Shown: positions 4,944 through 27,502 of the stretch, piece by piece
Layout of the letters: each line of letters starts with the position of its first letter
Numbering within the stretch: position 1 is the first letter of the stretch
Origin: Candidatus Latescibacterota bacterium
Lineage (GTDB): Bacteria; Latescibacterota; UBA2968; UBA8231
Direction: 5' to 3'
Assembly (NCBI GenBank): GCA_965243025.1
Contig: CBDETY010000003.1
Span: 3,680,001-3,744,000, forward strand
Length of the DNA stretch: 64,000 nt
Notes under the pieces: model-generated
Told to the model about the DNA's origin: nothing
Seen by the model: only the letters and a program-made list of their open reading frames with translations
Database searches by the model: none
Translations under genes and position numbers: made by a program

Positions 4944-6572
4944 CTATATCTTGGCCAGTTCGTCGTAGAAAACGCGAACCGCGTGCTTCTGGCGAAGCGT
5001 CCGCACGTAGTCGCTGAAGGCGCGCTTGCGTTTGCGGATCTTCACTATGGCCGCGGCGCGCCGGGCCGATTCGGAGTACGGCCGCAATACCGGCGCCTCC
5101 CGGCCGAGGATCTTGCATACCGAGTAGCCGCTGTGCGTCTTGACCGGACCGAACACCGCCCCGTCCTCCAGCCCCTCGGCGGTCTCGTAGAGCTTCCTGT
5201 GCCGGCTGTTCTTCGAAACGGTAATGCGGCCGTCGTGGTGGGCCATCCCCTCGCGGATGGTGTATTCCCGGGCGAGCGCCCCGGCGTCCTCTCCGGCGTC
5301 GAGCTGTTCCCTGATCCACTCCCCTTCCTCGGGGATACCGACGAGGATTTCGATGACTTCGATCTTTTCCTCGGTGTGGAATACCTCGGGGTGGTTGTCG
5401 TAGTAGCCGCGCGCCTCCTGCTCGCTGACAGTCACCAGGCGGTCGACGTTGCGCAGCCGCAGCTCCTGCATCAGTTGATCCTGGCGGTAGAGCTCCAGGG
5501 CGTCCAGGATCTTCTGATCCCGATCGATTCCCGCGGCAGTCGCCTCGGCGATGAACAGCTCCTGGGGAACGACCCCTTCCTCGAGGAAATTCACGAATGA
5601 TTCCGGATCGCTGAACTGCTCCGAATCCCGCTTGGCTTCGGGAACGAACTGCAGGAACTCGTCGAGTGTGATGCTCCCGCCTTTGTAGGTGCAGATCGGA
5701 AGCCGGCGGATGGCCTCCAGGTCCGCATCGAGCGAACCGCGCTCGCGCAGCACGGCCTCCACCGCCTCCATGTTGATTCGGGGCTCGAACACCTTGCTCA
5801 GCGAATCGGCGAGCACCTCCGCCCTCTCGGCCCGTTTCCGTCCGTACACCCCCTCGGCGACGAGGTCGCGGACCTCGTACAAGGGAACGGGGATCTCGTC
5901 GAGGACCTTGATGATGGTATAGCGCCACTTCTTCTCGTAGAGGAACCGCAGCGGCTCCGTGATCTCGCCTGCCTGAAGCTGGAAGATCCTCCGCAAAAAC
6001 TTCGAGGTGTCGTCCAACCTCATGTACTGGGGGACGACCCCGCCCTGGTCGCGCGTCTCCTTGTAGAGAGATCTCTGGCGCGCCAGCTCCCCGAAGTCCG
6101 CCCCGTCCAGTACCTCCTGCCGCGCGGCGAGCGCCTCCTCCTCCGTTTCCAGGAGGATACCGGCGATTCGCACCGCTCGATCGCGGCCTTCCAGCTTCTG
6201 TTGGGCGAGCAGTTCCTCTTCGCTGACCTCGACCTGGCGGTTGATGGCCAGTCGCTTGTACTCGGTCAGCACCTTCTGTCTGTGGAACACTTCGAGTTTC
6301 GCGACGAACCCCGGTTCGGCGCTGATGCCGGATTCTTCGGCCTCTTTGAGAAGCAGCTTCTTGTCGATGAGGCTTTCCAGCATCAGGCTGTCGGGAGCAG
6401 GCTCGGGTTTCCCCGACCTGCGGACATCTTCTACCGCCTCTCTGAAAACCCTGAGATCGTTTGCGGTCACATGCTGTCCCGCGATTTCGGCGAGCACCAC
6501 GTCCGCGGCGGATGCCATGTCGGTCCGGCACAGAACGGCGGCGCACGCCGCAAGAATGAGTTTTACAGGCAT
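4944..6572 (-). CDS. SurA/PrsA-like chaperone with two parvulin (PpiC-type) domains
   Basis: Signal peptide; VLAEIAGQHVT; LESLIDKKLLLKEA; GADFGELARQRS...GG; EARGYYDNHPEVF; GEDAGALAREYT; GPVKTHSGY. Confidence 0.85.
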   Translation of the reverse strand: MPVKLILAACAAVLCRTDMASAADVVLAEIAGQHVTANDLRVFREAVEDVRRSGKPEPAPDSLMLESLIDKKLLLKEAEESGISAEPGFVAKLEVFHRQKVLTEYKRLAINRQVEVSEEELLAQQKLEGRDRAVRIAGILLETEEEALAARQEVLDGADFGELARQRSLYKETRDQGGVVPQYMRLDDTSKFLRRIFQLQAGEITEPLRFLYEKKWRYTIIKVLDEIPVPLYEVRDLVAEGVYGRKRAERAEVLADSLSKVFEPRINMEAVEAVLRERGSLDADLEAIRRLPICTYKGGSITLDEFLQFVPEAKRDSEQFSDPESFVNFLEEGVVPQELFIAEATAAGIDRDQKILDALELYRQDQLMQELRLRNVDRLVTVSEQEARGYYDNHPEVFHTEEKIEVIEILVGIPEEGEWIREQLDAGEDAGALAREYTIREGMAHHDGRITVSKNSRHRKLYETAEGLEDGAVFGPVKTHSGYSVCKILGREAPVLRPYSESARRAAAIVKIRKRKRAFSDYVRTLRQKHAVRVFYDELAKI

Positions 6573-6600
6573 GGTCCTCGAGTCGTGCAGTTGGGTGTTT

Positions 6601-9225
6601 TCAATAGGTCAGGGCGACGGTGCGCAGGATTTCCCGGTCCTCGATCCCGGATCCATCGGTGTCGCTCCCGAGACGAAGGCGAACGGCGTACATACCTGGC
6701 GGAACGAGGTCTCCGGCTTCGTCCCGGCCATCCCACGGGATCGAGTAAGCGCCGGCGCTGACACTGCGCTGCTCTTCCAGGAGCCTGATCCTGCGGCCCC
6801 CGAGATCGAATATCTCCGCTTCGACCGCGGTGCTCGCACCGACCAGCATGAGCGTGAAATTCAGCGTCATCTCGTCGTTGACGCCATCGCCATTGGGGGA
6901 AAATACCGGCGGACTTACCGCGAGTTCGCCGAACAGCTCCTTGCGCTCCGGTTGGGCAACCACCTGCAGCGAGGTGCGGGTGACCTTCTCGTCGACGCGC
7001 TGCCACAGGCCGTCGCCCGAGCCGCGCAGCAGCGCCTGCAGGCGTCCTCCCGTGGAGTAGAGGGTACCCCGGAAATCGACCCGTACCGCCTCGGTTCCGG
7101 AAGGCACCTCTGGAAAGGAAAGGTGCAAGCTGTCGCCGCTGGCGAGAACCTCGACACCTTCCACCGCATGGCCGCCGGAATCACCACTTTCTTCGAAGGC
7201 GGAAGCGGGTCCGGCGGCCACCGACTCCCTTGCCGGATCGAAGGCCAGATCCATCCCGGCCGGCGGCAGCAGCAGCAGCTGGTTGAACGGATTGCCCTGA
7301 TCCTCGATATCGACCAACAGGAAAAACCCGCGCTCGACGCCCAGCGAATCCACACGGGAAGGGATCACCTGTCCGCGCAGGCTGTTGGCCACCGGATCGG
7401 AGAAGTTGACCCTGATGGATTTCAGCGTTGCCTGAGCGTTCGGATCCTCGGAAAGCAGCCTTGCCCGGATTGTCAGGAACTCGCGCGGCGAAGGGGAGGT
7501 GATCGCGCTTCCCGAGGCCGCTTCGTACGGTTCGCTCCACGGCTCCCAGTCGCTGCCGGCCACCTCCTCGGGAACGATATCCCCCTTCTGCGATTTGATG
7601 CGGATCTTGTTGTAGGCCGCTTCCGTGATTTCGGTTCCGTCCGCCTTGAAATAGTGCAGCAGGGTGTCGAGGGTGTTTCCCGTCCGCGTCTGGAGCTGGA
7701 CCCGCGTTCCCGGCGGCGTGTCGGCGTCCCACTCGATGGTGGTCAGGTTGCGGCTGCCCCCCAGCTGGATCAGGTCGGAAGTGAGCTCCACCTGCGGCTG
7801 GTATCCCTGCCCGATCAGCTGCATGTCGCCCACGTAGGCGACGACGTTGGCGGGGTATTCGTTCTTGCCGGCGCGCCGGTACTGGAGGCGGAAGAAGCGG
7901 GCCTTGACCGGCTCGAAACTGAAGTCGTAGAGATGAATCAGGCCGCTGGTGGCGGTGCGTTGCGGCAGGCCGTCGTTCTCCACCACGCGTTCCCATTTCA
8001 GCGATCCGTCGATTTCACGCGTGCCGTCCGAGAAATCGATCGCGAACCCCCCGAAGGTCCAGGCGTGCTCCCCGGCCCGGAAATTCAGGGACATCCGTTT
8101 TCCCTCTATCCAGAAGTAGGATCCGAGGTCGGCGACGAGGTCGACCAGAAACGAGGCGTCGTGCAGTCCCGAAGCGGCGAGGTTGAAGGCGAGATAGCTT
8201 TCGACCGTCCCGTCGAGGAGGATCTGCGGATTGAGATCCGCGGCGCCGAGAACGTGCGTGGTCGTATGCGAGAAGGAACCGCCACGGGTCAGGGTTTCCT
8301 TGAAAAGGTCGTCGCCGTCGCTCCATACCTCGAGCTCGGCGAGGCGCGGCCGCTCCCTGCGGAAGTACCGGACCGGGCCGCGGCGGCTTTCTTCGAGCTG
8401 GTCGTAGATCGACCTGGTAACGGCGAGCTCCCCGCCCGTTGACAGCAGCTTGGTGTATTCCACCACCCCGGTGTCCCCCGGCGCCTCCTGCCTCAGCAGC
8501 TCGAACTCTTCCCGCGATATCTCGCGTCCCTTCTCCAGGCCGGAGCCGTTTACCACAACCTGAACAAGACGCACGAGGCGCTTGCGGCGCTGCTCGAGGG
8601 GGAGGTTGGCCAGATCGATCTCGATCACCCGTTGGTTCACGTTCGCGTGCAGGGTCTGGTACACGCGCGTGAAGTCGATGGATGTGCCGGCTATCGCCTT
8701 GATCGGTTTCTGCCCGTCGGAGACCATCACGTCGAAGAGCTGGAACGGATCGCCCAGATCCTCATCGACGAAGCGGAGCACGATTTTGCTCGCGATCAGG
8801 GTTCGGCCCATGTCGACGGTGAACCACCACTGCAGACCGAGATTCCGGGCCGAGCCCGAAGTTGGCGCCGGCTCCCAGTAGGTCGTGAGATCGCCGTCGA
8901 ACAGGTTGACGACATCCTCCCGGTTGGTACCCGCGTCGACCGCGTCGAGCAGGACGATCTCTTCGGGGTCCTTCTTGAGGCTGGCCGGAGGGTTGAAGCG
9001 CAGGTTTTCGAGAATGTCATGCACGGCGTTGGTGTTGGTTCGCCAGTATCTCGGCCTGACCCCGTCTTCGTCGATCGCCAGGGTGCCGGTGGAAAATACC
9101 CAGTTGTCCCAGTGGGCCTGGCCGGCGACCACCACGGAACCGGGGCTCACGGTATGGCCGCTTTGCGATCCCGCGCTGCTGGCGAGCAACGCCATGGCCG
9201 AACAGACGACAGCGAGTCTCTTCAT
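6601..9225 (-). CDS. Secreted discoidin-like protein with C-terminal FlgD-Ig/CHU_C-like domain (tandem copy A)
   Basis: 874 aa. Signal peptide; NLFDGDLTTYWEP F5/8-like motif; C-terminal FSPNGDGVND...IFDLGGRRIR...WDGRDEAG...GMY. RBS AGAGGA. Confidence 0.8.
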   Translation of the reverse strand: MKRLAVVCSAMALLASSAGSQSGHTVSPGSVVVAGQAHWDNWVFSTGTLAIDEDGVRPRYWRTNTNAVHDILENLRFNPPASLKKDPEEIVLLDAVDAGTNREDVVNLFDGDLTTYWEPAPTSGSARNLGLQWWFTVDMGRTLIASKIVLRFVDEDLGDPFQLFDVMVSDGQKPIKAIAGTSIDFTRVYQTLHANVNQRVIEIDLANLPLEQRRKRLVRLVQVVVNGSGLEKGREISREEFELLRQEAPGDTGVVEYTKLLSTGGELAVTRSIYDQLEESRRGPVRYFRRERPRLAELEVWSDGDDLFKETLTRGGSFSHTTTHVLGAADLNPQILLDGTVESYLAFNLAASGLHDASFLVDLVADLGSYFWIEGKRMSLNFRAGEHAWTFGGFAIDFSDGTREIDGSLKWERVVENDGLPQRTATSGLIHLYDFSFEPVKARFFRLQYRRAGKNEYPANVVAYVGDMQLIGQGYQPQVELTSDLIQLGGSRNLTTIEWDADTPPGTRVQLQTRTGNTLDTLLHYFKADGTEITEAAYNKIRIKSQKGDIVPEEVAGSDWEPWSEPYEAASGSAITSPSPREFLTIRARLLSEDPNAQATLKSIRVNFSDPVANSLRGQVIPSRVDSLGVERGFFLLVDIEDQGNPFNQLLLLPPAGMDLAFDPARESVAAGPASAFEESGDSGGHAVEGVEVLASGDSLHLSFPEVPSGTEAVRVDFRGTLYSTGGRLQALLRGSGDGLWQRVDEKVTRTSLQVVAQPERKELFGELAVSPPVFSPNGDGVNDEMTLNFTLMLVGASTAVEAEIFDLGGRRIRLLEEQRSVSAGAYSIPWDGRDEAGDLVPPGMYAVRLRLGSDTDGSGIEDREILRTVALTY

Positions 9226-9349
9226 CGTGAATTCCTCTCTACTGTGCCAGCTTCATCAGTCGATCCCGGACAGCATTGCGAGATCTTCAATTTGTCCGGG
9301 ACGAATCCATTTTCCCGATCGATAAACTCAGTGCCCCGTCGCATATGTA

Positions 9350-9393: not shown

Positions 9394-9398
9394 GGTTT

Positions 9399-12020
9399 TC
9401 AATAGGTCAGGGCGACGGTGCGCAGGACCTCCCGGTCCTCGACTCCCGATCCATCGGTGTCGCTCCCGAGACGAAGGCGAACGGCGTACATACCTGGCGG
9501 AACGAGGTCTCCGGCTTCGTCGCGGCCATCCCACGGGATCGAGTAAGCGCCGGCGCTGACACTGCGCTGCTCTTCCAGGAGCCTGATCCTGCGGCCCCCG
9601 AGATCGAATATCTCCGCTTCGACCGCGGTGCTCGCACCCACCAGCATGAGCGTGAAATCCAGCGTCATCTCGTCGTTGACGCCATCGCCATTGGGAGAAA
9701 ATACCGGCGGACTTACCGCGAGTTCGCCGAACAGCTCCTTGCGCTCCGGTTGGGCAACCACCTGCAGCGAGGTGCGGGTGACCTTCTCGTCGACGCGCTG
9801 CCACAGGCCGTCGCCCGAGCCGCGCAGCAGCGCCTGCAGGCGTCCGCCGGTGGAGTAGAGGGTACCCCGGAAATCGACCCGTACCGCCTCGGTTCCGGAA
9901 GGCACCTCTGGAAATGAAAGGTGCAGACTGTCGCCGCTGGCAACCACCACGACCCCGTCCAGCTCCTGACCCGCTTCGCCACCCCCTTCCAAAAGGGAGG
10001 AGGAGCCGGCGAATACCGATTCGCGCAACGGATCGAAGCTCAGTTGCATCCCCGCCGGGGGCACCAGCAGCAACTCGTTGAACGGATTGTCCTGATCCTC
10101 GATGTCGACCAACAGGAAAAACCCGCGCTCGACGCCCAACGAATCCACACGGGAAGGGATCACCTGTCCGCGCAGGCTGTTGGCCACCGGGTCGGAGAAG
10201 TTGACCTCAATGGATTTCAGGGTGGCGTGAACTCCGGGATCCCCGGACAGCAAGGTCGCCCGAATCTTGAGGAACTCGCGCGGCGAAGGGGAGGTGATCG
10301 CGCTTCCCGAGGCCGCTTCGTACGGTTCGCTCCACGGCTCCCAGTCGCTGCCGGCCACCTCCTCGGGAACGATATCCCCCTTCTGCGATTTGATGCGGAT
10401 CTTGTTGTAGGCCGCTTCCGTGATTTCGGTTCCGTCCGCCTTGAAATAGTGCAGCAGGGTGTCGAGGGTGTTTCCCGTCCGCGTCTGGAGCTGGACCCGC
10501 GTTCCCGGCGGCGTGTCGGCGTCCCACTCGATGGTGGTCAGGTTGCGGCTGCCCCCCAGCTGGATCAGGTCGGAAGTGAGCTCCACCTGCGGCTGGTATC
10601 CCTGCCCGATCAGCTGCATGTCGCCCACGTAGGCGGAAACGTTGGCGGGGTATTCGTTCTTGCCGGCGCGCCGGTACTGGAGGCGGAAGAAGCGGGCCTT
10701 GACCGGCTCGAAATCGAAGTCGTAGAGGTGAACCAGGCCGCTGGTGGCGGTGCGTTGCGGGAGGCCGCCGCTTTCCACCACGCGTTTCCATTTCAGCGAT
10801 CCGTCGATTTCACGCGTGCCGTCCGAAAAATCGACTGCGAACCCCCCGAAGGTCCAGGCGTGCCCTCCGCCCCGGAAATTCAGGGACATCCGTTTTCCCT
10901 CTATCCAGAAGTAGGATCCGAGGTCGGCGACGAGGTCGACCAGAAACGAGGCGTCGTGCAGTCCCGAAGCGGCGAGGTTGAAGGCGAGATAGCTTTCGAT
11001 CGTCCCGTCGAGGAGGATCTGCGGATTGAGGTCCGCGGCGCCGAGAACGTGCGTGGTCGTATGCGAGAAGGAACCGCCACGGGTCAGGGTTTCCTTGAAA
11101 AGGTCGTCGCCGTCGCTCCATACCTCGAGCTCGGCGAGGCGCGGCCGCTCCCTGCGGAAGTACCGGACCGGGCCGCGGCGGCTTTCTTCGAGCTGGTCGT
11201 AGGTTCCCCTGGTAACGGCGAGCTCCCCGCCCGTTGACAGCAGCTTGGTGTATTCCACCACCCCGGTATCCCCAGGCGCCTCCTGCCTCAGCAGCTCGAA
11301 CTCTTCCCGCGATATCTCGCGTCCCTTCTCCAGGCCGGAGCCGTTTACCACAACCTGAACCAGACGTACCAAGCGCTTGCGGCGCTGCTCGAGGGGGAGG
11401 TTGGCCAGATCGATCTCGATCACCCGTTGGTTCACGTTCGGGTGCAGGGTCTGGTACACGCGCGTGAAGTCGATGGATTCACTGGCTATCGCCTTGATCG
11501 GCTTCTGCCCGTCGGAGACCATCACGTCGAAGAGCTGGAACGGATCGCCCAGATCCTCATCGACGAAGCGGAGCACGATTTTGCTCGCGATCAGGGTTCG
11601 GCCCATGTCGACGGTGAACCACCACTGCAGACCGAGATCCCGGGCCGAGCCCGAAGGCGGGGCCGGCTCCCAGTAGGTCGTGAGATCGCCGTCGAACAGG
11701 TTGACGACATCCTCCCGGTCGGTACCCGCTTCGACCGCGTCGAGCAGGACGATCTCTTCGGGGTCCTTCTTGAGGCTGGCCGGAGGGTTGAAGCGCAGGT
11801 TTTCGAGAATGTCATGCACGGCGTTGGTGTTGGTTCGCCAGTATCTCGGCCTGACCCCGTCTTCGTCGATCGCCAGGGTGCCGGTGGAAAACATCCAGCT
11901 CTCCCAGTGGGCCTGGCCGGCGACAACCACGGAACCGGGGCTCACGGTATGGCCGCTTTGCGATCCCGCGCTGCCGGCGAGCAGCGACATGGACAAACAG
12001 ACGACGGGGAGTCTCCTCAT
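9399..12020 (-). CDS. Secreted discoidin-like protein with C-terminal FlgD-Ig/CHU_C-like domain (tandem copy B)
   Basis: Paralog of 6601-9225. Start moved from 12041 to ATG 12020 (MRRLPVV) by alignment with copy A and RBS GAGGGA. Confidence 0.8.
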   Translation of the reverse strand: MRRLPVVCLSMSLLAGSAGSQSGHTVSPGSVVVAGQAHWESWMFSTGTLAIDEDGVRPRYWRTNTNAVHDILENLRFNPPASLKKDPEEIVLLDAVEAGTDREDVVNLFDGDLTTYWEPAPPSGSARDLGLQWWFTVDMGRTLIASKIVLRFVDEDLGDPFQLFDVMVSDGQKPIKAIASESIDFTRVYQTLHPNVNQRVIEIDLANLPLEQRRKRLVRLVQVVVNGSGLEKGREISREEFELLRQEAPGDTGVVEYTKLLSTGGELAVTRGTYDQLEESRRGPVRYFRRERPRLAELEVWSDGDDLFKETLTRGGSFSHTTTHVLGAADLNPQILLDGTIESYLAFNLAASGLHDASFLVDLVADLGSYFWIEGKRMSLNFRGGGHAWTFGGFAVDFSDGTREIDGSLKWKRVVESGGLPQRTATSGLVHLYDFDFEPVKARFFRLQYRRAGKNEYPANVSAYVGDMQLIGQGYQPQVELTSDLIQLGGSRNLTTIEWDADTPPGTRVQLQTRTGNTLDTLLHYFKADGTEITEAAYNKIRIKSQKGDIVPEEVAGSDWEPWSEPYEAASGSAITSPSPREFLKIRATLLSGDPGVHATLKSIEVNFSDPVANSLRGQVIPSRVDSLGVERGFFLLVDIEDQDNPFNELLLVPPAGMQLSFDPLRESVFAGSSSLLEGGGEAGQELDGVVVVASGDSLHLSFPEVPSGTEAVRVDFRGTLYSTGGRLQALLRGSGDGLWQRVDEKVTRTSLQVVAQPERKELFGELAVSPPVFSPNGDGVNDEMTLDFTLMLVGASTAVEAEIFDLGGRRIRLLEEQRSVSAGAYSIPWDGRDEAGDLVPPGMYAVRLRLGSDTDGSGVEDREVLRTVALTY

Positions 12021-12120
12021 CGCGAATCCCTCATTCTGCATTTCGCCTTGTGTCCATAAAGCCGGTTGGAGCCGTCACTGCGATCTCGCATACCCCAGGA
12101 GGGCAAGTCCAGTTCCCGGT

Positions 12121-14049
12121 TCAATAAACCAGGGCAAGGGCGGCAACCTCGGCATCGGGCTCATCATCCGCCTCGACTTCCAGCCGCAACAGGTACAAGC
12201 CGGGGGACAGCAGCCTGGCCTGTTCGTCCCGGCCGTCCCAGGTCGCCGAAAAACGGCCGCTGGTCCCGGCATCCACCGCAATATCCGCCACCCGCGCCCC
12301 CGCCAGATCGAACACCGCCAGCGAAACCGGAGCTCCCCCCACCAGGTTAACCAGATCGTATTCAACCGTCAGGAGGTCGTTGATCCCGTCGGCATTGGGG
12401 GTGAACGCCGACACTTCGAACGACCGGATGGTGCGAGTTCCTTCCATGACCGGGTTCACGCTGAGCGCGTTTCCCTCCACCAGAGGGTCGGCGTCTCCGG
12501 GGGTAACGCGCTGGCGGACTTCCGCCGGACGCTCGCTGTCGTAAATCCTGCCCGCGAACACCGTGCCCACCTGAAACACTTCGCTCCGAAACACCACCTC
12601 CATGAGCTCGCCCGAGGTCTCCAGGTCCACCCGGGGAATGTGCACGGAAAAGCTCTCGCCGTCCCACGGGGTCACGGAAAACTCCCCGGGGGACAGGACC
12701 GCCTGCCCGATGCGCACTTCGTCGACGTTTGCCGGAGACGCGGTGTATATCTGAACGCTGTCGAAACCGAGGTCGTCTCCCTGTATCCTCGGAAGCAGCT
12801 TGTAAGTGAACGACGTGGCCTCTCCGGGCCTGACCTCGTTGGGGTAAACCTCCGCCGCCACTTCGCTCGCCGAGGGCGGAGCCGACACCTCGAATTGCAG
12901 ATAGTCCAGGGCGGCCCCGGAAGATCCCTTTGAAGAGATGAAGTCCGCCTTTGTCTGCAGGAACCGACGGGGCTTGCCGTCCACATCCCCGCTCCGGCCT
13001 GCCCCGAAGTCGAAGGGTCCCCTCCAGAACCCCCAGTTCTCCCTGTCAGGCTTGATGCCCGCTTTCTCCCCTCCCTCCAAGCGGCTGTAGCTGCCCCGGT
13101 CCAGCAGGTTGCCGTCCCGGTCGAAGCGGGTCCGCTCATCGCCGCGGAAGGTGCGGCGCCAGTAGCTGTTGGGATCCTCGTCATCCCCGGTTCGCATGCT
13201 GAGCTCGATGGCAGCGCCCGGATCCTCGCTGCCGGACCAGGTGAGGTCGCCGAGAACGGAACGCCCACCCAGATCGAGGACATTCGAAAGGTAACCGGCT
13301 CTGGAAACAAAGCCGTCGCCGTAGATCTCGAACTCCGCTATCTCCCAGTCTCCTCTGGGAGACTCGAACAGCATCTCGGCGATCGGAACGTCGGGAAGCT
13401 CGATGTCGACGATCGGATCCCTGTTCCCGATCACGTTGTAGACCGGGTCGAAGTCGATAACCTCGAATCTTCCGGTGTGCTTGTAGGCCCGGGTTCCGCG
13501 TTTCCGGATGTCGCCGTCGTTGGTGCCAATGAAAAAATCCCTGACGAACCGTCTTTTCAGGAACTCCGGCCTCGGCTGGAATACGACCCGGCGGATGGGA
13601 TACAGATCGGCGAAATCGATCCAGATCGCCCACAAGAAACCGTCCTCTGAAAACCGCGAGGACCAGTTGTAAAAACCAAGAAAGGCGGTTCTCAAGTTCC
13701 CGTCCACGAGCCCCCCGACCCAGCGATCATCTTCCCAACCCTCAAGCGGATCGTAGAACCGCACATGGCCGCCGCGCTCGAGGATCCCGGGGGCAATGTT
13801 GACTTCGGGATCGAGACGGACCGGCGTCAGCGATTCGTTGATTTCGATATGGCGATGATTCCCGGAAAGTTCCTCGTCGACGTCAGCCCAGGAAAGCTGA
13901 ACGAAATCGATTCCCTCCTGGCTGGCCTTGTCCGGGACCGGAAGTTTCTCACCGCCGAGGCGGTAGACCGTGAGTGTGTCTACAGGGCCGGCTCCAAAAG
14001 CGCAGGCCACCAGGGCTCCAAGCGTACAGCGGAGGGAGTGAGGTTTCAT
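12121..14049 (-). CDS. Secreted ~640 aa discoidin-like/FlgD-Ig protein (paralog 1)
   Basis: Start MKPHSLR at 14049 preferred over 14127. Motifs LTVYRLGG, LVDGNLRTAF, WEIAEFEIYGDGF, RTGDDEDP, FTPNADGIND, WDGRD. Confidence 0.8.
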   Translation of the reverse strand: MKPHSLRCTLGALVACAFGAGPVDTLTVYRLGGEKLPVPDKASQEGIDFVQLSWADVDEELSGNHRHIEINESLTPVRLDPEVNIAPGILERGGHVRFYDPLEGWEDDRWVGGLVDGNLRTAFLGFYNWSSRFSEDGFLWAIWIDFADLYPIRRVVFQPRPEFLKRRFVRDFFIGTNDGDIRKRGTRAYKHTGRFEVIDFDPVYNVIGNRDPIVDIELPDVPIAEMLFESPRGDWEIAEFEIYGDGFVSRAGYLSNVLDLGGRSVLGDLTWSGSEDPGAAIELSMRTGDDEDPNSYWRRTFRGDERTRFDRDGNLLDRGSYSRLEGGEKAGIKPDRENWGFWRGPFDFGAGRSGDVDGKPRRFLQTKADFISSKGSSGAALDYLQFEVSAPPSASEVAAEVYPNEVRPGEATSFTYKLLPRIQGDDLGFDSVQIYTASPANVDEVRIGQAVLSPGEFSVTPWDGESFSVHIPRVDLETSGELMEVVFRSEVFQVGTVFAGRIYDSERPAEVRQRVTPGDADPLVEGNALSVNPVMEGTRTIRSFEVSAFTPNADGINDLLTVEYDLVNLVGGAPVSLAVFDLAGARVADIAVDAGTSGRFSATWDGRDEQARLLSPGLYLLRLEVEADDEPDAEVAALALVY

Positions 14050-14228
14050 GCGGCCTTCAAGTGCCTGCAGGGTGACGGGTCGACCTGGCGTCAACGCGCG
14101 ACCGGCAGGGGAATCGTCGCCGTTCACTTTCGGAAGAAACCTGAAGCAGGGAGGAGCAACTCCACAAAAGGCTCGCTCCCCCTTTCCTTCAGAAGTATTC
14201 CCAAGGGCCCGGTTCGCTGCCCGGCGCT

Positions 14229-18167: not shown

Positions 18168-18250
18168 CGAAATCCCCCGCTTTTCTCCAGCTGCCGGGCC
18201 GGAATCGAATTCCATCCAACGGGTTTCACGAAGAATGGCTGACTTCGGGA

Positions 18251-18287
18251 AATAAAAAAAGGGATGGACCCGTTTCGAGCCCATCCC
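18251..18287 (-). terminator. Rho-independent terminator after the 300 aa gene
   Basis: Minus strand reads GGGATGGGCTCG-AAA-CGGGTCCATCCC-TTTTTTTATT: a 12-bp stem (two G-U pairs) plus a U7 tract. Confidence 0.9.
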
Positions 18288-18308
18288 CGTACTTCAGAGA
18301 AACAAACC

Positions 18309-19211: not shown

Positions 19212-19369
19212 AGTCAGACTCCTTCAGCTAAGGGATGGAGGGGGTTGATTCATGCAAATACAGGAACAACGAAAGTCCGATTCAAGCCTTTTGACTGACC
19301 GGTCAACCTCCTTGCCGCTGTCCCCTCTCGACCGGGACTCGGAGGTATCCGCCTGAGTCAAGATGCTAA

Positions 19370-19398
19370 TAACTACGTAATCGACCATCGAATGTCAA
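19370..19398 (-). promoter_or_regulatory. Putative sigma70-type promoter for the 300 aa gene
   Basis: Perfect TTGACA (19398-19393), 17-nt spacer, then TAGTTA (imperfect -10), in an AT-rich intergenic region. Confidence 0.45.
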
Positions 19399-19474
19399 GG
19401 ATTAAGTTGAGGGCCGGCGGGGTTTCCGCGCCGGAGTTGATCAGCCTTAACTTCATATTTTGCAATAGGTTGTA

Positions 19475-22435: not shown

Positions 22436-22437
22436 TT

Positions 22438-25215
22438 CTACTCCACTCCAGCGTAGATCGTCATGAAGCTCGTGGTTTCCGTTCTGCCTTCGGACATCTT
22501 TTCGAACACACCCGGCGAACTCTGTTCCACGGCCTCCGAAAGGATACGGCCGACCCGGAAACCGATCTGGGTGGTCAGCCGGTAGCCCAGGTATTGCGAG
22601 TTGTTGGTCAGTTGCAGGGCGAAGATCGCCGAGCGTTGATCACCCGTCGGCCCGGTGATCCCCAGGTCGACCATCTCGTCTTCATCCGTCTCCTGGTCGG
22701 CAAACTGAGCCAGCTCGACGCCTCCTGTAACGACGCTCCTGCTGAGCACCGGAAACTGGGCGAGGAGGATCGCCAGGCCCGTCCATTCCTTCCGGTCGTC
22801 CATCTCCTTCAGAAATGCATCCTGCCGCAGGAGTTCGCTCTTCAGCTTCGGCTGCAGGTCGAGGTTCCCGATGGAGTAGTCAGCCTCGATCTTGTTGATA
22901 ATCCCGATGAAGTTGGTCGTGCCGTTCAGCTCGCGCCCCTCGATGTCCTGCGCTTCTTTCGAAACCTGATTGTAAAACTCGTACTTCATCTTGTTGACCA
23001 ACTTCAGCCGCGGAATCGCCGTATAGTCGAACCCCAGCCAGGCTGTGTTTATCCACGTGTCCGGCGCGTTGAGGAGATCCTCGACGAGCGGTTGGGGGGG
23101 AGCACTGCGGAAGGGGGACGGTGCCCTGCGGTCGTCGGGGATGGTATCGGCGGCCCGCTTGAGCATGTCGAACACCCGCACTCGGCCCAGCCGGGCAAAA
23201 TCCTTGTCGAAGGTGAACATCCCGTAGGTCGTGCGGTTGTCGCGTTTGTCCGAGAGCATGCGCTCGTCAAGGCGTCCCACGAACACGCGCGTCTCCGGGG
23301 TCAGGTGGGTGCCTGCAAAGAAGTTGTAGCCGCGGCGGTCCGCTTTGTACGGATAGTCGGGCAACTCATCGTCCTCGAAGCGATCGATCCAGCCGTTGTT
23401 GTTCAGGTCGATCCCGAACAGGTACTCCGGGCGGTCGACGTGGTGGCGCAGGAAAGGCTCTTCATAGTCGGCGATGATGTTGGGAACCGAGGTGTTGTCG
23501 TTCTGGTTGAAGTCGGAGATGAAGTCGTTGTTCTCGTCCCAACCGGGAAAGACATTGAAGTCCGCGGCCTGGCTGCCGACTCGAGCCCAGTCGGGCCTGC
23601 TGTCCTGATCGTCGTTGTCCTCGACGAACTCGTAAACCGAATTCAGGGGAAAGTCGTAGGTGAAATCTCCCTCGTCGTCGGTCACGTAAGCACTTGTCGA
23701 GTAGTCGTGATCTATTGTATACAGCTCGGCGAACCCGAAGTAGGGATATTCCTGTTTGGACAACGTGAAGATGCCCGCATCCGCTTGCTCGGACGAAATT
23801 TCATGGCCCTCGTCCGCCGCAAAAAGCGCCGCGTTCGGATACTGCGCATAGCGGATATTGCGGTCCCACTCGCCGTAGAAATCAAACCCGGCTATATCCG
23901 TCCCCTCGATGGTGAATCCCCCGACGAGGTTGGCGGTCGGCAATCCGTAGTTGAACTTCACGACCTGGACATTCGAGATGTCCCTGATGTTTCCCGCCGC
24001 CCGCTTGACGTTGAGCAGCACCGGCTCGGACTCGTCGATGACCGTGGCGGTCAAAGGCGCCGCCGGAACCGGGCGGCGCCCCGTCTGCCGGTTGGACCAC
24101 ATGTCGATCCGGTAGTCGTTGGCGAGGAGGTACTCGAACTCTACGTCGACGATGCTGGTCAGGTCCGGGCCGACGTACGCCGGATCGGTGAAGTCGTAGT
24201 TGATCACGATCCGTTCGCTGCCGTCGGCGGCAAGGAATCCTTCGCGCTCGAGACCGCCGAAAATGGTCGGCCACTCCGTTCCGGAACGGACCACCTCCTC
24301 GAGGGTGAAGACAGTTTCCATACCGGTCTCGAAGTCCCTGCTGCGGATGCGGATGTCGTGGCTGAAAAGCGCCGCTCCGCCCTCGTTGTCGTCAGGGCTG
24401 TCGTCGCTGAGAACGATGGCCACCGCAGAGACCGGGGTGCTGCTCTGTCCCGCGGTCAGGTTTCCGGCGACGAAGTTCCCGGTGAACATGTCGAGGGAGG
24501 TGTTGGCTCCGCGGGCGTCTACCAACGTACCTCCCAGGGTGATGAAATCGCCGACCTGCACCGTGGCGCGGCCACCGACGAGGCTGGTGGAGTTGGTCCG
24601 CTTGCGGGGGGTATTGGTGGTTCCCGCGGCCGGGTCGCTGATGCGGGAAGCGATGACCGTGGCGGCGTATTTGTCCGCCGCGAAATCGATCTGGAGACCG
24701 TTGAAGTCCGGCTTGGAGAAGGTCATCGGCGTGAGGGTCGTGCGGATCCGGTTGCCCAGGGTGATCGCGTAGGCGTACTGGCCCTTGGCGTCGCTGCTGA
24801 CAGCGAGGCTGCTGAAGAAGTTGTCGAACCTGCTGCCCTTGAAGATTCCCGAGCCCTCCTGCTGCGGCTGGTCCTGGCGCCAGTCGTAGATCAGCCAGCC
24901 CCTGCTGACGTAGTCTCCGAAGAAATCGTAGAAGTAATCTCCCTCCAGGGCTGTATTGACATAGCGCTGATAATGAGTGCGCGCGTAGTTGGAGTATTCC
25001 CACTGGCGCCAGCGGTATTCATTATACAGTTCCTGAGGCACGTACCATCTCTTTACCGTCGGATCCAAAGCTCCGAAGACCACTCCCGGCCCCTTGGGCT
25101 CGAACGACACAGCACCCCCCCGTTGGACCCCGAGGCGGCTGCCGTAATCCTGTGCCAAAGTCGCCGTCGCGGTCACGGCCAGGAACGCAATTACCGATCC
25201 TGCACGGATATTCAA
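22438..25215 (-). CDS. Large exported protein, probable outer-membrane beta-rich protein with Ca-binding acidic repeats (paralog A)
   Basis: 925 aa, collinear with 19475-22435 (DYGSRLG, LEGDYFYDFFG, LTPMTFSKPDFNG, DDSPDDNEGGA, GIDLNNNGW). 2-bp gap to the next gene. RBS AGGGAGGAG, TTG start. Confidence 0.65.
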   Translation of the reverse strand: MNIRAGSVIAFLAVTATATLAQDYGSRLGVQRGGAVSFEPKGPGVVFGALDPTVKRWYVPQELYNEYRWRQWEYSNYARTHYQRYVNTALEGDYFYDFFGDYVSRGWLIYDWRQDQPQQEGSGIFKGSRFDNFFSSLAVSSDAKGQYAYAITLGNRIRTTLTPMTFSKPDFNGLQIDFAADKYAATVIASRISDPAAGTTNTPRKRTNSTSLVGGRATVQVGDFITLGGTLVDARGANTSLDMFTGNFVAGNLTAGQSSTPVSAVAIVLSDDSPDDNEGGAALFSHDIRIRSRDFETGMETVFTLEEVVRSGTEWPTIFGGLEREGFLAADGSERIVINYDFTDPAYVGPDLTSIVDVEFEYLLANDYRIDMWSNRQTGRRPVPAAPLTATVIDESEPVLLNVKRAAGNIRDISNVQVVKFNYGLPTANLVGGFTIEGTDIAGFDFYGEWDRNIRYAQYPNAALFAADEGHEISSEQADAGIFTLSKQEYPYFGFAELYTIDHDYSTSAYVTDDEGDFTYDFPLNSVYEFVEDNDDQDSRPDWARVGSQAADFNVFPGWDENNDFISDFNQNDNTSVPNIIADYEEPFLRHHVDRPEYLFGIDLNNNGWIDRFEDDELPDYPYKADRRGYNFFAGTHLTPETRVFVGRLDERMLSDKRDNRTTYGMFTFDKDFARLGRVRVFDMLKRAADTIPDDRRAPSPFRSAPPQPLVEDLLNAPDTWINTAWLGFDYTAIPRLKLVNKMKYEFYNQVSKEAQDIEGRELNGTTNFIGIINKIEADYSIGNLDLQPKLKSELLRQDAFLKEMDDRKEWTGLAILLAQFPVLSRSVVTGGVELAQFADQETDEDEMVDLGITGPTGDQRSAIFALQLTNNSQYLGYRLTTQIGFRVGRILSEAVEQSSPGVFEKMSEGRTETTSFMTIYAGVE

Positions 25216-25261
25216 GGCTGACTCCTCCCTTGGTTACAGCTGAAACTCTGGTAGTCCCGGC

Positions 25262-27502
25262 TCAGAAAGCCAGGCTGACTATACCTGGTATCTTTTCCAC
25301 CCCGGTTCCGGCGTCGAGGGTGACGACGAAGATGTAGTTTCCAGGAGGCATCAGATCTCCCGCTTCGTTGCGACCGTCCCAATGCTGGGTGAAACGGCCG
25401 CTGGACTTGAGCCCGCTGTAGATTCTGATGCGCCTCCCCGACAGGTCGTAGATTGCGAAATCGAGCTGGGTGGGTCTGGCGATGTTGGTGATATCACAGG
25501 CTATCGACACGGATTCGTTGATGCCGTCCCCGTTTGGTGAAAACGCCGCCGGGGTCGCCGTGACGTTGACCAGCAGCTTGTCGATGACCGGTACATCGAC
25601 GAACAGGTTGCGCAACACCGGTGTTCCGATCGGGTCGGTGTCGGGGTCGGTTTGCCCTGAACGGCTCAGGTCCGCTGCATTTCCCGGCTCGAGTGGCTGA
25701 CCGAAGACCGGATCCTGCTCGTTCAGGGCCTCCCCGCTGAAGCGGGTTCCGACCCGCAGGACGGTGCTGTGAAAATCGACCCGCAACAGGGTGCCGGTTT
25801 CATCGATGTGCGGGAATTCCAGTGTGAAGCCGCTGGTGTCGTTTTCCACGACGGTGAAATCGCCTGCGGCCGCGGGAGTATCGGTTACCGACATGCCGGT
25901 GAAATCGCTCTCGTGGCGAACCGCACCGTCAGCTGAAAAGATCTGCACCGAGCCGATGTTCCGGGTCTGCAGCGGAGTGGTGATGCGCAGGCTGCCGAAC
26001 CCGAGATCCAGACCCTTGCTCGTGTAGAGGACGGCGTAGGTGAAAGCGGTTTCCTCTCCGAGAATCGCCGAACGGGGAAAGATCTCCGCAAGAAGTGAAT
26101 CGGCAAACACCGGACGCGAAACGTCGAAACCCAGCCCCCCGATGCCGGTTGCCGAATCGAAGGTTTCGTTGGCGAAGCCGATCCTGAACTGGAAGTAGCG
26201 CCTTGTACCGCTGGTGACGATGGGAACGCCCGCGGTCGCCTCCTCGAGAGCTGCCTCGTCCACGACCCCGTTCATAGTGTAAGGGGGGGACCAGGCGCTC
26301 CAGTTGGTCAGGTCGTCCCTGATCGCGGACCTGGCGTCCTGGTCCAGGCCGAAATAGGAGGCGTTGTCGAGGGTGATCGATTGCCGCTCCTCGAGGGAAA
26401 GGTTGTTGAAGGTCAGCAGCGATTCGCGGCCGTCCCCGTCGGGATTGTCGAGCACGGTCTCGATCAAGGCTGCCAGGTCGGCGTCCTCGACCTCGGATGC
26501 AGGCTTCCAGGGGGCGTCGATCGGGATATCCTCCACGGTCGCCCCGCGGCGCACGACCCTGCCGGAGGGCTGCACGCCGATGCGGGTGTACTCGACCGGA
26601 TCGGGATCGTTGCCCGAACGAGTCTGGATGAATACCTGGGAACGATCCGGGTCTCCGAGCTGTTCCTGGGTCCAACGGATGTTTCCGAGAATGGCGCGCT
26701 CACCGAAGTCGAAAACGTTCGAGACGTAGGTGGCCTGGGGTACGAAGCCATCGCTGAAAACCTGCATCTCCGCGATCTCGAAGCCAACGGAGGACAGGGA
26801 TTTCAGCCGGATGTGGCGGACGAACTGGGTCGGTATTCTCAGGTCGACGACAGCCTCCTCGTTCTGTCCTTCGAGGGCGATCGTTTCCCAGATCAGGGCC
26901 CCGTCTCGCACCGATTCCGGGGCGCCGTCGTTGACGAACAGTTCGTAACCCTTGATGAACTCGCGCTGGTTGGGAAATGCCGGGGCCGGGTAATCCTCGG
27001 CGGCGTTGCGCGGAAAGAAACGGAAGCGGTTGACGCCGAATACCGACCCGAGATCGAACTGCATGATCAACCCGAACGCGCCGGCGCTCGATCCGGCCGA
27101 CAGCGCCTTAACCTCGAGAGCGGTGTTGCCGTCGCCGTCGTACATGTTGGGAAAGTTGCCCTCGAGCGTGCGAAAAGAAGGCAGCGGCGTGAAAACCTGC
27201 CCGCCTCGATCGACAACTCCCAGGAGAATGTTGTCGGAGGTGTCGGCCTGCTGCGGAAAGATCCAGCCAGGTCTGTCGAGCAGGTCAAAGTCGATAACCC
27301 CACCCGGGGTGTTGGTTTCATCGACGTTCCTGTCGTCGAGAATCACGGTGGCAGGAATATCCCCTCCACCGCTTTCCCAAGGCAGGCCGGTAACCCCGAC
27401 GACCATGGATTCGGTCGTGGCATCTGAAACTCCGGCCGAGAGGAGGGCAAACGCACAGATTGCTGCAAAAACCGGGGCTCGGGCAGCGTCGAGTTTGGTC
27501 AT
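25262..27502 (-). CDS. Secreted 746 aa discoidin-like/FlgD-Ig protein (divergent paralog, first gene of the cluster)
   Basis: Signal peptide; NMYDGDGNTA; FDLGSVFGVNRFRFFP; FEIAEMQVFSDGF; RSGNDPDP; FSPNGDGINE; WDGRNEAG...PGNY. Confidence 0.8.
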   Translation of the reverse strand: MTKLDAARAPVFAAICAFALLSAGVSDATTESMVVGVTGLPWESGGGDIPATVILDDRNVDETNTPGGVIDFDLLDRPGWIFPQQADTSDNILLGVVDRGGQVFTPLPSFRTLEGNFPNMYDGDGNTALEVKALSAGSSAGAFGLIMQFDLGSVFGVNRFRFFPRNAAEDYPAPAFPNQREFIKGYELFVNDGAPESVRDGALIWETIALEGQNEEAVVDLRIPTQFVRHIRLKSLSSVGFEIAEMQVFSDGFVPQATYVSNVFDFGERAILGNIRWTQEQLGDPDRSQVFIQTRSGNDPDPVEYTRIGVQPSGRVVRRGATVEDIPIDAPWKPASEVEDADLAALIETVLDNPDGDGRESLLTFNNLSLEERQSITLDNASYFGLDQDARSAIRDDLTNWSAWSPPYTMNGVVDEAALEEATAGVPIVTSGTRRYFQFRIGFANETFDSATGIGGLGFDVSRPVFADSLLAEIFPRSAILGEETAFTYAVLYTSKGLDLGFGSLRITTPLQTRNIGSVQIFSADGAVRHESDFTGMSVTDTPAAAGDFTVVENDTSGFTLEFPHIDETGTLLRVDFHSTVLRVGTRFSGEALNEQDPVFGQPLEPGNAADLSRSGQTDPDTDPIGTPVLRNLFVDVPVIDKLLVNVTATPAAFSPNGDGINESVSIACDITNIARPTQLDFAIYDLSGRRIRIYSGLKSSGRFTQHWDGRNEAGDLMPPGNYIFVVTLDAGTGVEKIPGIVSLAF

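Follow-up and report, generated by a model that had tools for sequence, protein, structure and literature searches.

[quoted passage not shown] Type-B cargo of the T9SS combines a Sec signal with a C-terminal domain of the CHU_C/TIGR04131 family and, according to a passage of PMC9143113, binds PorP-like barrels for anchorage at the surface, while TXSScan, in a passage of PMC4793230, found the T9SS only in Bacteroidetes. Cargo-shuttle pairs of Flavobacterium johnsoniae are specific, although three orphan substrates use one shuttle, and a barrel gene directly downstream of a cargo gene has been described (PMC12618676). PULs join SusC/SusD to surface glycan-binding proteins and occur as many paralogous loci per genome, and chaperone-usher pili are made from a barrel, a dedicated periplasmic chaperone, one highly expressed small subunit and several larger binding subunits. 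SlpA, the giant barrel of Deinococcus-Thermus (8ae1; SlpA_C, PF21620), carries an SLH domain and a coiled-coil stalk.

The window, the whole 64,000-nucleotide stretch analysed here, contains ten co-oriented minus-strand genes, as the earlier note had listed them. The first encodes a 746-aa cargo protein (A type; 25262..27502), in which a signal peptide (by hydropathy) and some 600 residues without a Pfam family precede a FlgD_ig/CHU_C domain at 651-732. Two large paralogs follow, of 925 aa (22438..25215; signal peptide by hydropathy) and 986 aa (19475..22435), the second starting 2 nt past the stop of the first. After a 263-bp intergenic region (19212..19474) come the gene for a 300-aa protein with a signal peptide (D type; 18309..19211) and a hairpin resembling an intrinsic terminator (18260..18288). 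Three E-type cargo genes of about 650 codons (16239..18167, 642 aa; 14229..16211, 660 aa; 12121..14127, longest ORF 668 aa with a signal-peptide-like start at Met27) lead to two H-type cargo genes of 880 aa (9399..12041) and 874 aa (6601..9225), and the block closes with an exported parvulin-type prolyl isomerase/chaperone of 542 aa with two rotamase stretches (4944..6572). The latter is formally an enzyme, the one point at which the description of the ten products as unrecognisable as enzymes has to be amended. Past the parvulin gene, the anticipated CRTAC1/ASPIC-UnbV FG-GAP protein of 645 aa lies on the same strand (2907..4844; six FG-GAP_3 stretches and UnbV_ASPIC by Pfam), and at the other end a plus-strand gene for a 633-aa TPR protein (27660..29561) diverges from the cassette.

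A hydrophobic N-terminal stretch consistent with export is present in ten of ten cassette proteins by a hydropathy heuristic (10-residue Kyte-Doolittle mean of at least 2.17 with 1-3 K/R ahead), compared with values of at most 1.92 in six of six presumed cytoplasmic proteins of the same window. Because the 13-bp hairpin at 18288-18260 falls inside the longest ORF of the first E-type gene (16239-18284, 681 aa), this gene most likely starts at ATG 18167 and would encode 642 aa, not 681. The three E-type proteins are 58-64% identical among themselves and about 27% identical to the 746-aa protein over most of its length, and the 874-aa gene, judging from the 93% identity of the products, arose from the 880-aa gene by recent tandem duplication.

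Eighty of 361 related loci were kept for analysis, and gene content was counted in the 43 that have at least 7 kb on both sides. The A type is present in all 43, the E type in 42, the D and H types in 37 each and the parvulin in 35; two barrels occur in 33, and the CRTAC1-type gene, in 17, is a frequent but not constant neighbour. The A-type gene lies directly upstream of a barrel gene in 56 of the 59 loci with at least 2.5 kb of upstream sequence, while two long barrel ORFs are found in 51 of the 80 loci, ordered 925-like then 986-like in 42 of these 51. Genes for TPR proteins, in some cases with a PMT_2 (GT-C) N-terminus, are also found repeatedly within or next to related cassettes, often just before the D-type gene. 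The recurrence of the gene set in related loci is more than chance, and the ten-gene block is a cassette conserved in Latescibacterota and Gemmatimonadota, where single MAGs have several copies: at least six loci in assembly JAJDVZ01, for example, and at least two on one 5.6-Mb contig. These copy numbers per MAG are lower bounds, as the analysis retained only 80 of the 361 loci. Averaged over loci, identity to the window protein is 0.56 for the barrel, 0.39 for the A and E types, 0.33 for D, 0.32 for H and 0.29 for the parvulin, so that the platform is conserved and the binders are variable. Scattered homologs without synteny, or large proteins that model as soluble enzymes or as known TonB-dependent or T9SS components, would have spoken against the earlier proposal of a surface-assembly locus; instead, synteny is strongly conserved in the 43 loci, and the large paralogs model as barrels with no such family match. 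Neither the barrel family nor the cassette appears to have been described before.

The two large paralogs, which share 37% identity over their full length, had been proposed as outer-membrane proteins, and both model as outer-membrane beta-barrels (AF2, Foldseek). The barrel model (pLDDT 65, pTM 0.60) has long antiparallel strands, about 24 as counted from its strand list. In the 925-aa protein a beta-rich domain, modelled with high confidence, is inserted at residues ~239-416, roughly one third along the barrel; an N-terminal region (residues ~20-100) is conserved, and three acidic loops resembling EF-hands (~533-616) are invariant. The best Foldseek matches, namely SlpA (8ae1_A, E 1.2e-7), LptD, MtrB and FimD, are all outer-membrane barrels, with TM-scores of at most 0.35, and the likeness to SlpA, LptD and MtrB is only a generic one of fold. 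Neither paralog matches any family in Pfam (E up to 10) or NCBIfam (E up to 0.1), PorP/SprF included, and these libraries yielded no usher and no SusC/SusD, as the earlier note had it, nor any TonB-dependent receptor or named T9SS component for the large paralogs. Compared with PorP/SprF, which are about one third of their size, the cassette barrels have no detectable sequence relation, are 925-986 aa long with some 24 strands, usually occur as a paralogous pair and carry the acidic loops.

All six tailed proteins match FlgD_ig and CHU_C at the extreme C-terminus. The FlgD-like tail recognised in the earlier note is thereby confirmed, whereas its statement that no Por/Spr motifs are present has to be revised, since CHU_C is the type-B sorting-domain family of the T9SS. 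Only two of the six tailed proteins of the window reach the Pfam cut-off for CHU_C, which is 27 bits; the 746-aa protein scores 34.2. With E limited to 0.01, 40 of 40 A- and E-type relatives and 28 of 30 H-type relatives match CHU_C. Among the listed relatives of the 746-aa protein, 114 of 120 have CHU_C as a precomputed domain, and one public record calls a relative a [quoted passage not shown]. The tails fall short of the NCBI cut-offs (24.9 bits against 35 for TIGR04131; 19.9 against 23 for TIGR04183). Tails of different types are almost equally alike within a locus and between loci (0.393 vs 0.378, 0.345 vs 0.334 and 0.346 vs 0.338), unlike the specific cargo-shuttle pairs of F. johnsoniae; being hardly locus-specific, they point to recognition by a general machinery, not by one private to each locus, and the notion of a self-contained machine is left unsupported. 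Cassette cargo thus resembles type-B cargo in its Sec signal and C-terminal domain family, in its adhesin-like, non-enzymatic character, in the barrel gene directly downstream and in that several cargoes may share one barrel, as the orphan substrates do. It differs in tails that lie below the NCBIfam cut-offs and are not locus-specific, in the added parvulin and CBM9-fold protein, and in host phyla not known experimentally to run a T9SS.

The label "lectin-like" given earlier to these proteins holds well for the 880- and 874-aa pair, which exceed the Pfam cut-off for F5_F8_type_C (34.1 and 31.9 bits against 28.2), and less firmly for the 746- and 650-aa types, which match CBM32/CBM47 structures only marginally in profile searches (E 0.002-0.07). 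In the 880-aa protein one discoidin/CBM32-like module spans residues 114-212 and a second is seen by profile match; in the 746-aa protein a weak CBM32/47-like module lies near residues 100-235. F5_F8_type_C is present in 30 of 30 H-type proteins, and profiles of the A/E and H types alike match CBM32/47 structures, supporting the prediction that the tailed proteins carry discoidin/CBM32-type modules.

The 300-aa protein is of another kind and has no CHU_C/FlgD_ig tail. Its model superposes on the CBM9 module of Thermotoga maritima Xyn10A (1i82_A, E 5.9e-9, TM 0.73 on target), a fold shared with the Caldicellulosiruptor module 7nwo and the wider DOMON type. The window's own protein has no Pfam match, a distant relative reaches CBM9_1 (29.2 bits against 23.4), and in the nearest ESM Atlas clusters CBM9_1 is present in 13%, 37% and 100% of members. 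Unlike CBM9, the 300-aa protein is stand-alone and secreted, not an enzyme module, and is about 90 residues larger. It further differs in that His24, the predicted first residue of the mature protein, is invariant, as is a DxDH motif in the CBM9-fold body, and in a C-terminal W-G-x-I-K motif exclusive to its family; this last motif, singled out in the earlier note, is found just once across the six reading frames of the window. Ahead of the gene, a promoter-like site (TTGACA-N17-TAGTTA) and a ribosome-binding site (AAGGAG) were seen by eye, neither being called by a consensus scan. About 20 nt past its stop lies the terminator-like hairpin, with a 13-bp stem, eight G-C pairs and a T run. Such a hairpin follows the D-type gene in 22 of 51 loci, compared with 0 of 129 barrel, 0 of 70 E-type, 1 of 52 H-type, 0 of 46 parvulin and 3 of 70 A-type genes, and this strong, conserved terminator fits the idea that the 300-aa protein is an abundant subunit.

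From these observations we infer, tentatively and at somewhat less than even confidence, that the cassette is a multi-copy surface lectin-display or glycan-capture module that builds a lectin-bearing outer-membrane structure, whose likely use would be the binding of polysaccharides or other glycan-coated surfaces. The earlier interpretation is thereby retained in part: the barrels, the synteny and the lectin-type modules are supported and the idea of an abundant subunit fits, but the absence of Por/Spr motifs and the self-contained machine are unsupported. In the proposed sequence of events, all ten proteins would be exported by Sec, judging from the heuristic signal peptides, and the parvulin may keep the large barrel precursors, the multi-domain cargo or both competent in the periplasm. 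The 925- and 986-aa proteins would insert as outer-membrane barrels of about 24 strands, as modelled, and the six CBM32-like proteins would cross the outer membrane by means of their type-B-like (CHU_C/FlgD-Ig) C-terminal domain, the tail being read by a general machinery, most likely a T9SS of the host, as family membership and lack of locus specificity suggest. Gene order suggests that the cargo may then pass to the barrel whose gene directly follows the first cargo gene, and stay attached there; by analogy, this barrel would play the part of PorP/SprF for type-B cargo in Bacteroidota. The CBM9-fold protein, probably made in excess from its own promoter-terminator unit, would serve as an abundant glycan-end-binding partner that docks by its conserved C-terminal motif.

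Glycan uptake would agree with the lectin-display reading in all but the role of the barrels, which, in a functional counterpart of a Bacteroidota PUL, would be gated oligosaccharide import channels fed by the tailed lectin-like proteins, with the CBM9-fold protein capturing chain ends on the cell surface or within the periplasm. The many copies per genome, the CBM-type modules throughout the cassette and a barrel adjoining surface proteins with such modules recall PULs, and the carriers belong to the FCB group and are saccharolytic. With some 24 strands, an inserted domain and a conserved N-terminal region, a possible gate for a pore, the large barrel looks more elaborate than anchoring would require, which favours a channel role. 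A passage of PMC4454575 presents Latescibacteria as saccharolytic and proposes only "non-specific porins" for outer-membrane passage. Flanking genes, in the window and in related loci, encode among others a sulfatase, an ABC permease, an enolase-superfamily dehydratase, an SDR, an AraC regulator, a GH2-like domain and an HpcH aldolase, and DUF6785/6784 membrane proteins lie beside many loci (16 loci by blastp clustering; 21 ORFs by phmmer). However, the individual flanking enzyme families are each seen in just 3-6 of the 80 loci, and the cassette, unlike a PUL, has no lipoprotein signals, no sensor-regulator and no internal CAZymes, Pfam finding no glycoside hydrolase or lyase inside it in the window. 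Pfam and NCBIfam also reveal neither a Plug or TonB-dependent receptor domain nor a SusD-like protein in it, so that uptake would have no known energy coupling. The barrel is moreover the most conserved component, whereas one would expect channels specific for a substrate to change along with their lectins. Import is a credible but unlikely account.

A self-contained secretion or assembly machine, in which the barrel pair is a usher-like translocon, the parvulin a dedicated chaperone and the FlgD-Ig tail is read by the barrel with no T9SS involved, appears rather improbable to us. The same six families do occur together in almost every locus, 35 of 43 loci have a dedicated chaperone gene, and the hairpin after the presumed major-subunit gene completes a likeness to chaperone-usher pili. 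A barrel of about 24 strands with a beta-rich domain a third of the way in resembles the usher layout; FimD and PapC rank 16th and 19th in the Foldseek search (E about 5e-5), and generic tails with a highly conserved barrel would fit direct recognition. A T9SS is not demonstrated in these phyla, and literature searches joining T9SS with Latescibacter* found no paper. Against this, there is no usher or PapD-like match in Pfam or NCBIfam, the chaperone is a parvulin, the subunits have complete Ig-like tails instead of pilin folds, the usher matches are weaker than those to LptD, SlpA and MtrB, the tail family is one that known T9SS systems read, and no energy source is evident. Still less probable, in our judgement, is a purely structural role, with the barrels as abundant SlpA/OmpM-like envelope proteins and the Ig-tailed proteins as a variable surface coat or S-layer-like array without specific nutrient capture. 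Trimeric SlpA is the top structural match, the paralogous copies in a genome are several and variable, and SlpA_C is matched below threshold in 10 of 27 divergent barrel relatives, always over positions 226-330 of the profile (at best E 2e-7 and 30.2 bits, where the cut-off is 35). Yet the window's own barrels do not match SlpA_C even at E up to 10, the barrel-family profiles retrieve no SlpA chain among PDB sequences, and the TM-score to SlpA is only 0.26. No SLH or other cell-wall-binding domain was found by Pfam, nor do the barrels have a coiled-coil stalk, and the cargo bears carbohydrate-binding-type modules, not known S-layer domains.

The surface lectin-display or glycan-capture reading accordingly remains the one we prefer, and the cassette may provide two little-studied phyla with a means of holding on to polysaccharides.

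The cassette consists of ten minus-strand open reading frames at 4944-27502, all of which lie exactly where the earlier note had placed them, and its ten-gene observation therefore stands. In transcription order, the first gene encodes a 746-aa protein (A-type; 25262-27502, minus strand) and is followed after 46 bp by barrel 1 (925 aa; 22438-25215, minus) and, only 2 nt beyond the barrel 1 stop, by the start of barrel 2 (986 aa; 19475-22435, minus), the two paralogs being 37% identical over their full length. A 263-bp gap precedes the gene of a 300-aa protein (D-type; 18309-19211, minus). On the same strand follow three genes for ~650-aa proteins (E-type; 58-64% identical mutually), two genes for 880- and 874-aa proteins (H-type; 6601-12041, 93% protein identity) and, as the last cassette gene, one for a 542-aa parvulin with two rotamase stretches in Pfam, while a CRTAC1/ASPIC-UnbV gene stands 3' of the parvulin. 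For the 681-aa E-type frame, the presence of a terminator hairpin within the longest reading frame makes the ATG at 18167 the probable start. The two H-type genes arose by recent tandem duplication; an identical 18-nt hairpin-like stretch occurs in them at 7587 and 10382. By hydropathy, an N-terminal hydrophobic stretch is present in all ten cassette proteins and in none of six presumed cytoplasmic controls from the window, and, taken as a heuristic for Sec signal peptides, this check was positive in all six A-, E- and H-type proteins. An Rfam search of the whole window returned no match, and a sigma-70 consensus scan found no promoter ahead of the cassette genes.

Scanning one genome per species yielded 361 loci with a barrel relative, and the window proteins were mapped onto all open reading frames of the best 80 of these 361, taken with 10-kb flanks. 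Of the 59 loci with sufficient sequence on the 5' side, 56 have an A-type gene, read from the same strand, immediately before the barrel gene. In the 43 loci whose flanks extend 7 kb or more in each direction, A-type genes occur in 43, E-type in 42, D-type in 37, H-type in 37, parvulin in 35 and CRTAC1 in 17, and all five non-barrel families are found together in 25. Two long barrel frames are present in 51 of the 80 loci, 42 of them ordered 925-like then 986-like. The order of modules varies (ABBDEE, DEHABBJ, ABDEJH, HBABE) while the set remains constant. Mean identity to the window protein across loci is highest for the barrel (0.56, versus 0.29-0.39 for the other components). As many as six of the best 80 loci come from one assembly, and one 5.6-Mb contig carries two. 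The cassette is thus real and strongly conserved.

It is also apparently undescribed. In the collection of papers searched, none joins T9SS with Latescibacter* and none describes such loci; "FlgD Ig-like" with Gemmatimonadota gave no paper, T9SS with Gemmatimonadota and the D-type motif strings gave nothing relevant, and no account of loci of this kind came from combining Latescibacter* either with polysaccharide utilisation or with C-terminal domain plus outer membrane. By hand count, the submitters labelled the best 80 of the 361 loci as Latescibacterota (40), Gemmatimonadota, including -etes, -aceae and Gemmatimonas (32), or other (8), with single loci labelled Myxococcales, Planctomycetota, Bryobacterales and Handelsmanbacteria. 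Several pairs of loci, with L009, L010 and L011 among them, agree in gene order and almost exactly in match statistics, yet one member is labelled Gemmatimonadota and the other Latescibacterota. The labels are therefore soft, and submitters' phylum names are an unreliable guide to the range of the cassette.

The barrels constitute a new family of giant outer-membrane barrels for which neither Pfam nor NCBIfam holds a model. The 925-aa protein matches no Pfam family at E <= 10, the 986-aa protein has a single chance-level TGT_C2 match at that threshold, and neither matches an NCBIfam family at E <= 0.1. A word-indexed search gave 698 relatives at E <= 0.001 among 7999 scored candidates; the 120 relatives listed carry no Pfam domain and are all named "hypothetical protein". 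A profile search of 1.84 billion representatives gave 938 clusters (50% identity) at E <= 0.001, of which 338 reach E <= 1e-30. Profiles A1 and A3 of the family recovered nothing meaningful among PDB sequences (0 hits and 3 hits at E >= 0.2, respectively). The DUF6029 identity considered for the 986-aa protein was discarded, as its nearest named ESM Atlas cluster reaches only 0.89, short of the score from which a match counts there as more than a lead, and Pfam gives no DUF6029 match.

An AlphaFold2 model of the barrel, built on 35 sequences (pLDDT 65, pTM 0.60), consists of long antiparallel strands, about 24 as counted from the strand list, with a well-predicted beta-rich insertion at residues ~239-416. 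Residues ~20-145 and 519-622 are highly conserved yet poorly predicted. The latter segment contains three invariant acidic loops (D533-D538, D560-N572 and D603-D616), the last of which fits the EF-hand calcium-loop pattern. Foldseek searches of the PDB with this model returned only outer-membrane barrels, including SlpA (8ae1_A, E 1.2e-7), LptD, MtrB, FimD/PapC, TonB-dependent receptors and porins, with TM-scores on large barrels all <= 0.35. On the model, then, the outer-membrane barrel fold class of both proteins is clear, and no family can be assigned. The likeness to MtrB raised the idea of an extracellular electron conduit, which was rejected since no haem-binding motif was seen by eye in the cassette translations.

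The six A-, E- and H-type proteins end in a common tail: FlgD_ig and CHU_C of Pfam both match the same last 70-90 residues in all six. FlgD_ig lies at or above its cut-off in five of them, and CHU_C (PF13585) exceeds its cut-off of 27 bits in the 746-aa (34.2 bits) and 681-aa (27.2 bits) proteins and falls below it in the other four (21.7-25.8 bits). The assignment is consistent among relatives, with CHU_C matching 40 of 40 A/E-type and 28 of 30 H-type proteins at E <= 0.01; precomputed PF13585 matches occur in 114 of 120 relatives of the 746-aa protein among the matches listed, and one NCBI record names such a relative [quoted passage not shown]. In NCBIfam, the best tail reaches 24.9 bits with the type-B model TIGR04131 (cut-off 35) and 19.9 bits with the type-A model (cut-off 23). 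Locus-specific tails would have been a sign of private recognition between a tailed protein and its barrel, an idea rejected because within-locus likeness of tails on different cargo types hardly exceeds that between loci (0.393 versus 0.378, 0.345 versus 0.334, 0.346 versus 0.338). These values argue against a strictly "cognate" pairing, and the tail accordingly resembles a generic signal. Outside the cassette, a 955-aa CRTAC1-type protein (59078-61945, plus) with FG-GAP_3 and UnbV_ASPIC also ends in FlgD_ig (E 8.8e-12), which shows a tail of this kind in use elsewhere in the window.

Ahead of their tails, all 30 H-type proteins examined carry an F5/8 type C (discoidin) module, and at two places the profile of their family matches CBM32 modules from glycosidases of solved structure. 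The A- and E-type proteins have no Pfam family outside the tail; their profile gives marginal, mutually consistent matches to CBM47/CBM32 lectin modules at positions 100-235 (E 0.002-0.07). Searching the PDB by sequence with the 746- and 880-aa proteins returned FlgD Ig domains and noise only.

The 300-aa protein, which has 47 database relatives, adopts a CBM9 fold in its AlphaFold2 model (pLDDT 84.9, pTM 0.82), with Foldseek matches to 1i82_A (E 5.9e-9, TM 0.73 on the target) and 7nwo (E 1.3e-8), and weaker superposition of haem-binding DOMON-type subunits. The window protein itself has no Pfam match at E <= 10 and no NCBIfam match, and by sequence its family finds only noise and FlgD Ig domains in the PDB. 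The distant relative P0167 reaches Pfam CBM9_1 at 29.2 bits (cut-off 23.4), and CBM9_1 occurs in 13-100% of the members of the nearest ESM Atlas clusters. In the D-type alignment, W173 is invariant and W51 nearly so, residues that may correspond to the sugar-clamping tryptophans of CBM9. His24, directly after the predicted signal-peptidase site, is invariant in 31 of 31 aligned members, as is a DxDH motif at residues 121-125 (n=31). Proteins with a copper histidine brace are typified by an N-terminal histidine. The putative C-terminal docking motif W-G-x-I-K occurs in the last 15 residues of 50 of 56 D-type frames and in 0 of 6872 other frames across the 80 loci, a distribution that led us to reject it as a sorting signal common to several families.

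The surroundings of the D-type gene set it apart from its neighbors. By eye, its upstream gap shows a ribosome-binding site, AAGGAG, and a TTGACA-type hexamer of good quality; 3' of the gene lies a G+C-rich hairpin with a 13-bp stem and a T run. Counted across loci with our own hairpin-finder script, terminator-like hairpins occur 3' of the D-type gene in 22 of 51 loci, compared with 0 of 129 barrel, 0 of 70 E-type, 1 of 52 H-type, 3 of 70 A-type and 0 of 46 parvulin genes. An upstream gap of its own together with a terminator is the signature, at the level of sequence, of a gene probably expressed above its neighbors. The segment 18001-20000, which covers this gene and its gap, has the lowest G+C of the window (0.581, versus 0.60-0.71 elsewhere).

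Frequent neighbors of the cassette are TPR proteins, some with a PMT_2 glycosyltransferase-type N-terminus, DUF6785/6784 membrane proteins and CRTAC1 proteins. About three copies of a second gene module lie in the window, at 27660-49218 and also at 253-2874. It comprises TPR proteins (27660-29561, plus; 35655-37508, plus; 42208-43518, minus), CRTAC1/ASPIC-UnbV FG-GAP proteins (29495-31357, plus; 33584-36121, minus; 40444-42207, minus; and the C-terminal part of 43638-47291, plus), DUF6785+DUF6784 proteins (31571-33463 and 47293-49218, both plus) and spermidine-synthase-like fusion proteins (253-2874, plus; 37729-40260, minus). Families of this module also flank the cassette in related loci. 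Many related loci place a TPR protein between the barrel and the D-type gene, as at 6459-8660 of locus L066, some with an N-terminal PMT_2 (GT-C glycosyltransferase-type) membrane domain, unlike the window, where the TPR gene is divergent and upstream of the A-type gene. The PMT_2-bearing neighbors hint at glycosylation of exported proteins.

Within this module, a pentapeptide-repeat frame (44044-45582, plus), whose family recurs in nine related loci, lies inside the 1217-aa frame 43638-47291 (plus) in a different reading frame. Because FG-GAP and UnbV_ASPIC match only the C-terminal third of the 1217-aa frame, the true CRTAC1 gene probably starts after ~45.6 kb. Further along, 50694-59095 holds a cluster of sugar-acid-type catabolic genes encoding an SDR (50694-51491, minus), a PhyH dioxygenase (51593-52390, plus), an enolase-superfamily protein (52412-53674, plus), a PIG-L deacetylase (53679-54614, minus), an HpcH/HpaI aldolase (56704-57468, minus) and an M81/MlrC peptidase (57533-59059, plus), with a GH2-like TIM-barrel match inside a long frame at 54641-59095 (minus). 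Gene models at 54641-59095 are uncertain because this long minus-strand frame overlaps other calls.

The closest known logic to that of the cassette is the T9SS type-B cargo with its adjacent barrel. PorP/SprF barrels are far smaller than the 925- and 986-aa proteins. [quoted passage not shown] The cassette likewise places type-B-like, non-enzymatic cargo before a barrel, and its logic is that of type-B-tailed, adhesin-like cargo plus an adjacent barrel; unlike PorP/SprF, its barrels are usually duplicated and show no Pfam or NCBIfam sequence match to PorP/SprF. We tentatively favor a surface lectin-display or glycan-capture module as the best single account, one that we would not yet call probable. 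In such a module, the type-B-like tail would direct export of the CBM32-like proteins that bear it, the barrel pair would hold them, the parvulin would assist folding, and the CBM9-fold 300-aa protein would serve as an abundant glycan-binding partner.

Other accounts share parts of this evidence. A PUL-like import channel seems unlikely; no Plug, TonB_dep_Rec or SusD match was found in any of 11 proteins with Pfam or NCBIfam, and the cassette is therefore not a SusC/SusD locus. Less likely still is the self-contained, usher-like machine proposed by the earlier note. Its outer-membrane platform, variable set of putative glycan-binding proteins, abundant subunit and sorting tail agree with the predictions presented here. 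Its statement that Por/Spr motifs are missing was wrong, since the tails match CHU_C, the T9SS type-B sorting-domain family, and self-containment is unsupported. Neither Pfam nor NCBIfam gives an usher or PapD-like match, so this is not a chaperone-usher locus, and the likeness of the barrel model to FimD (3rfz_B, E 4.4e-5, TM 0.21/0.24) and PapC (2vqi_B) is generic only.

A structural coat like that of SlpA is very improbable. SlpA is, on the model, the nearest fold of the barrel and not its family: the likeness is one of fold only (8ae1_A, TM 0.26), SlpA_C (PF21620) and SLH have no match in the window barrels, and barrel-family profiles retrieve no SlpA chain from the sequences of the PDB. 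SlpA_C does appear below threshold in 10 of 27 divergent barrel relatives (16.7-30.2 bits, cut-off 35), in one profile region. A bolder reading, to which we give little credence, is an outer-membrane assembly system, hitherto unrecognised and independent of T9SS, in the Latescibacterota/Gemmatimonadota lineage. Here, a heteromeric 24-strand barrel pair of the new family would be both translocon and platform for FlgD-Ig-tailed proteins, with its own parvulin chaperone, and the abundant 300-aa CBM9-fold subunit, with its invariant N-terminal histidine and DxDH, would be a new histidine-brace-like metal-binding protein that works on the polysaccharide captured. Scanning the 50 other frames of the window gave no match to a T9SS family. 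As to the range of T9SS, the cited part of PMC11285876 allows for its possible presence in further FCB phyla, Gemmatimonadetes among them, and that of PMC4793230 (TXSScan) places it in Bacteroidetes only.

Latescibacterota and their Gemmatimonadota-labelled relatives are widespread, uncultured and saccharolytic; for the handling of polymers at the outer membrane, a 2015 analysis of Latescibacteria genomes proposed, in its cited passages, non-specific porins only (PMC4454575). The cassette offers defined objects for testing, namely the barrel family for structure, the lectin-like and CBM9-fold proteins for glycan binding and the conserved N-terminal histidine for metal binding. Present in several copies per genome, the cassette could be these bacteria's counterpart of the Bacteroidota PUL, and, with a far larger barrel of quite another kind, it would carry the type IX secretion rule of "type-B cargo plus cognate barrel" outside Bacteroidota.
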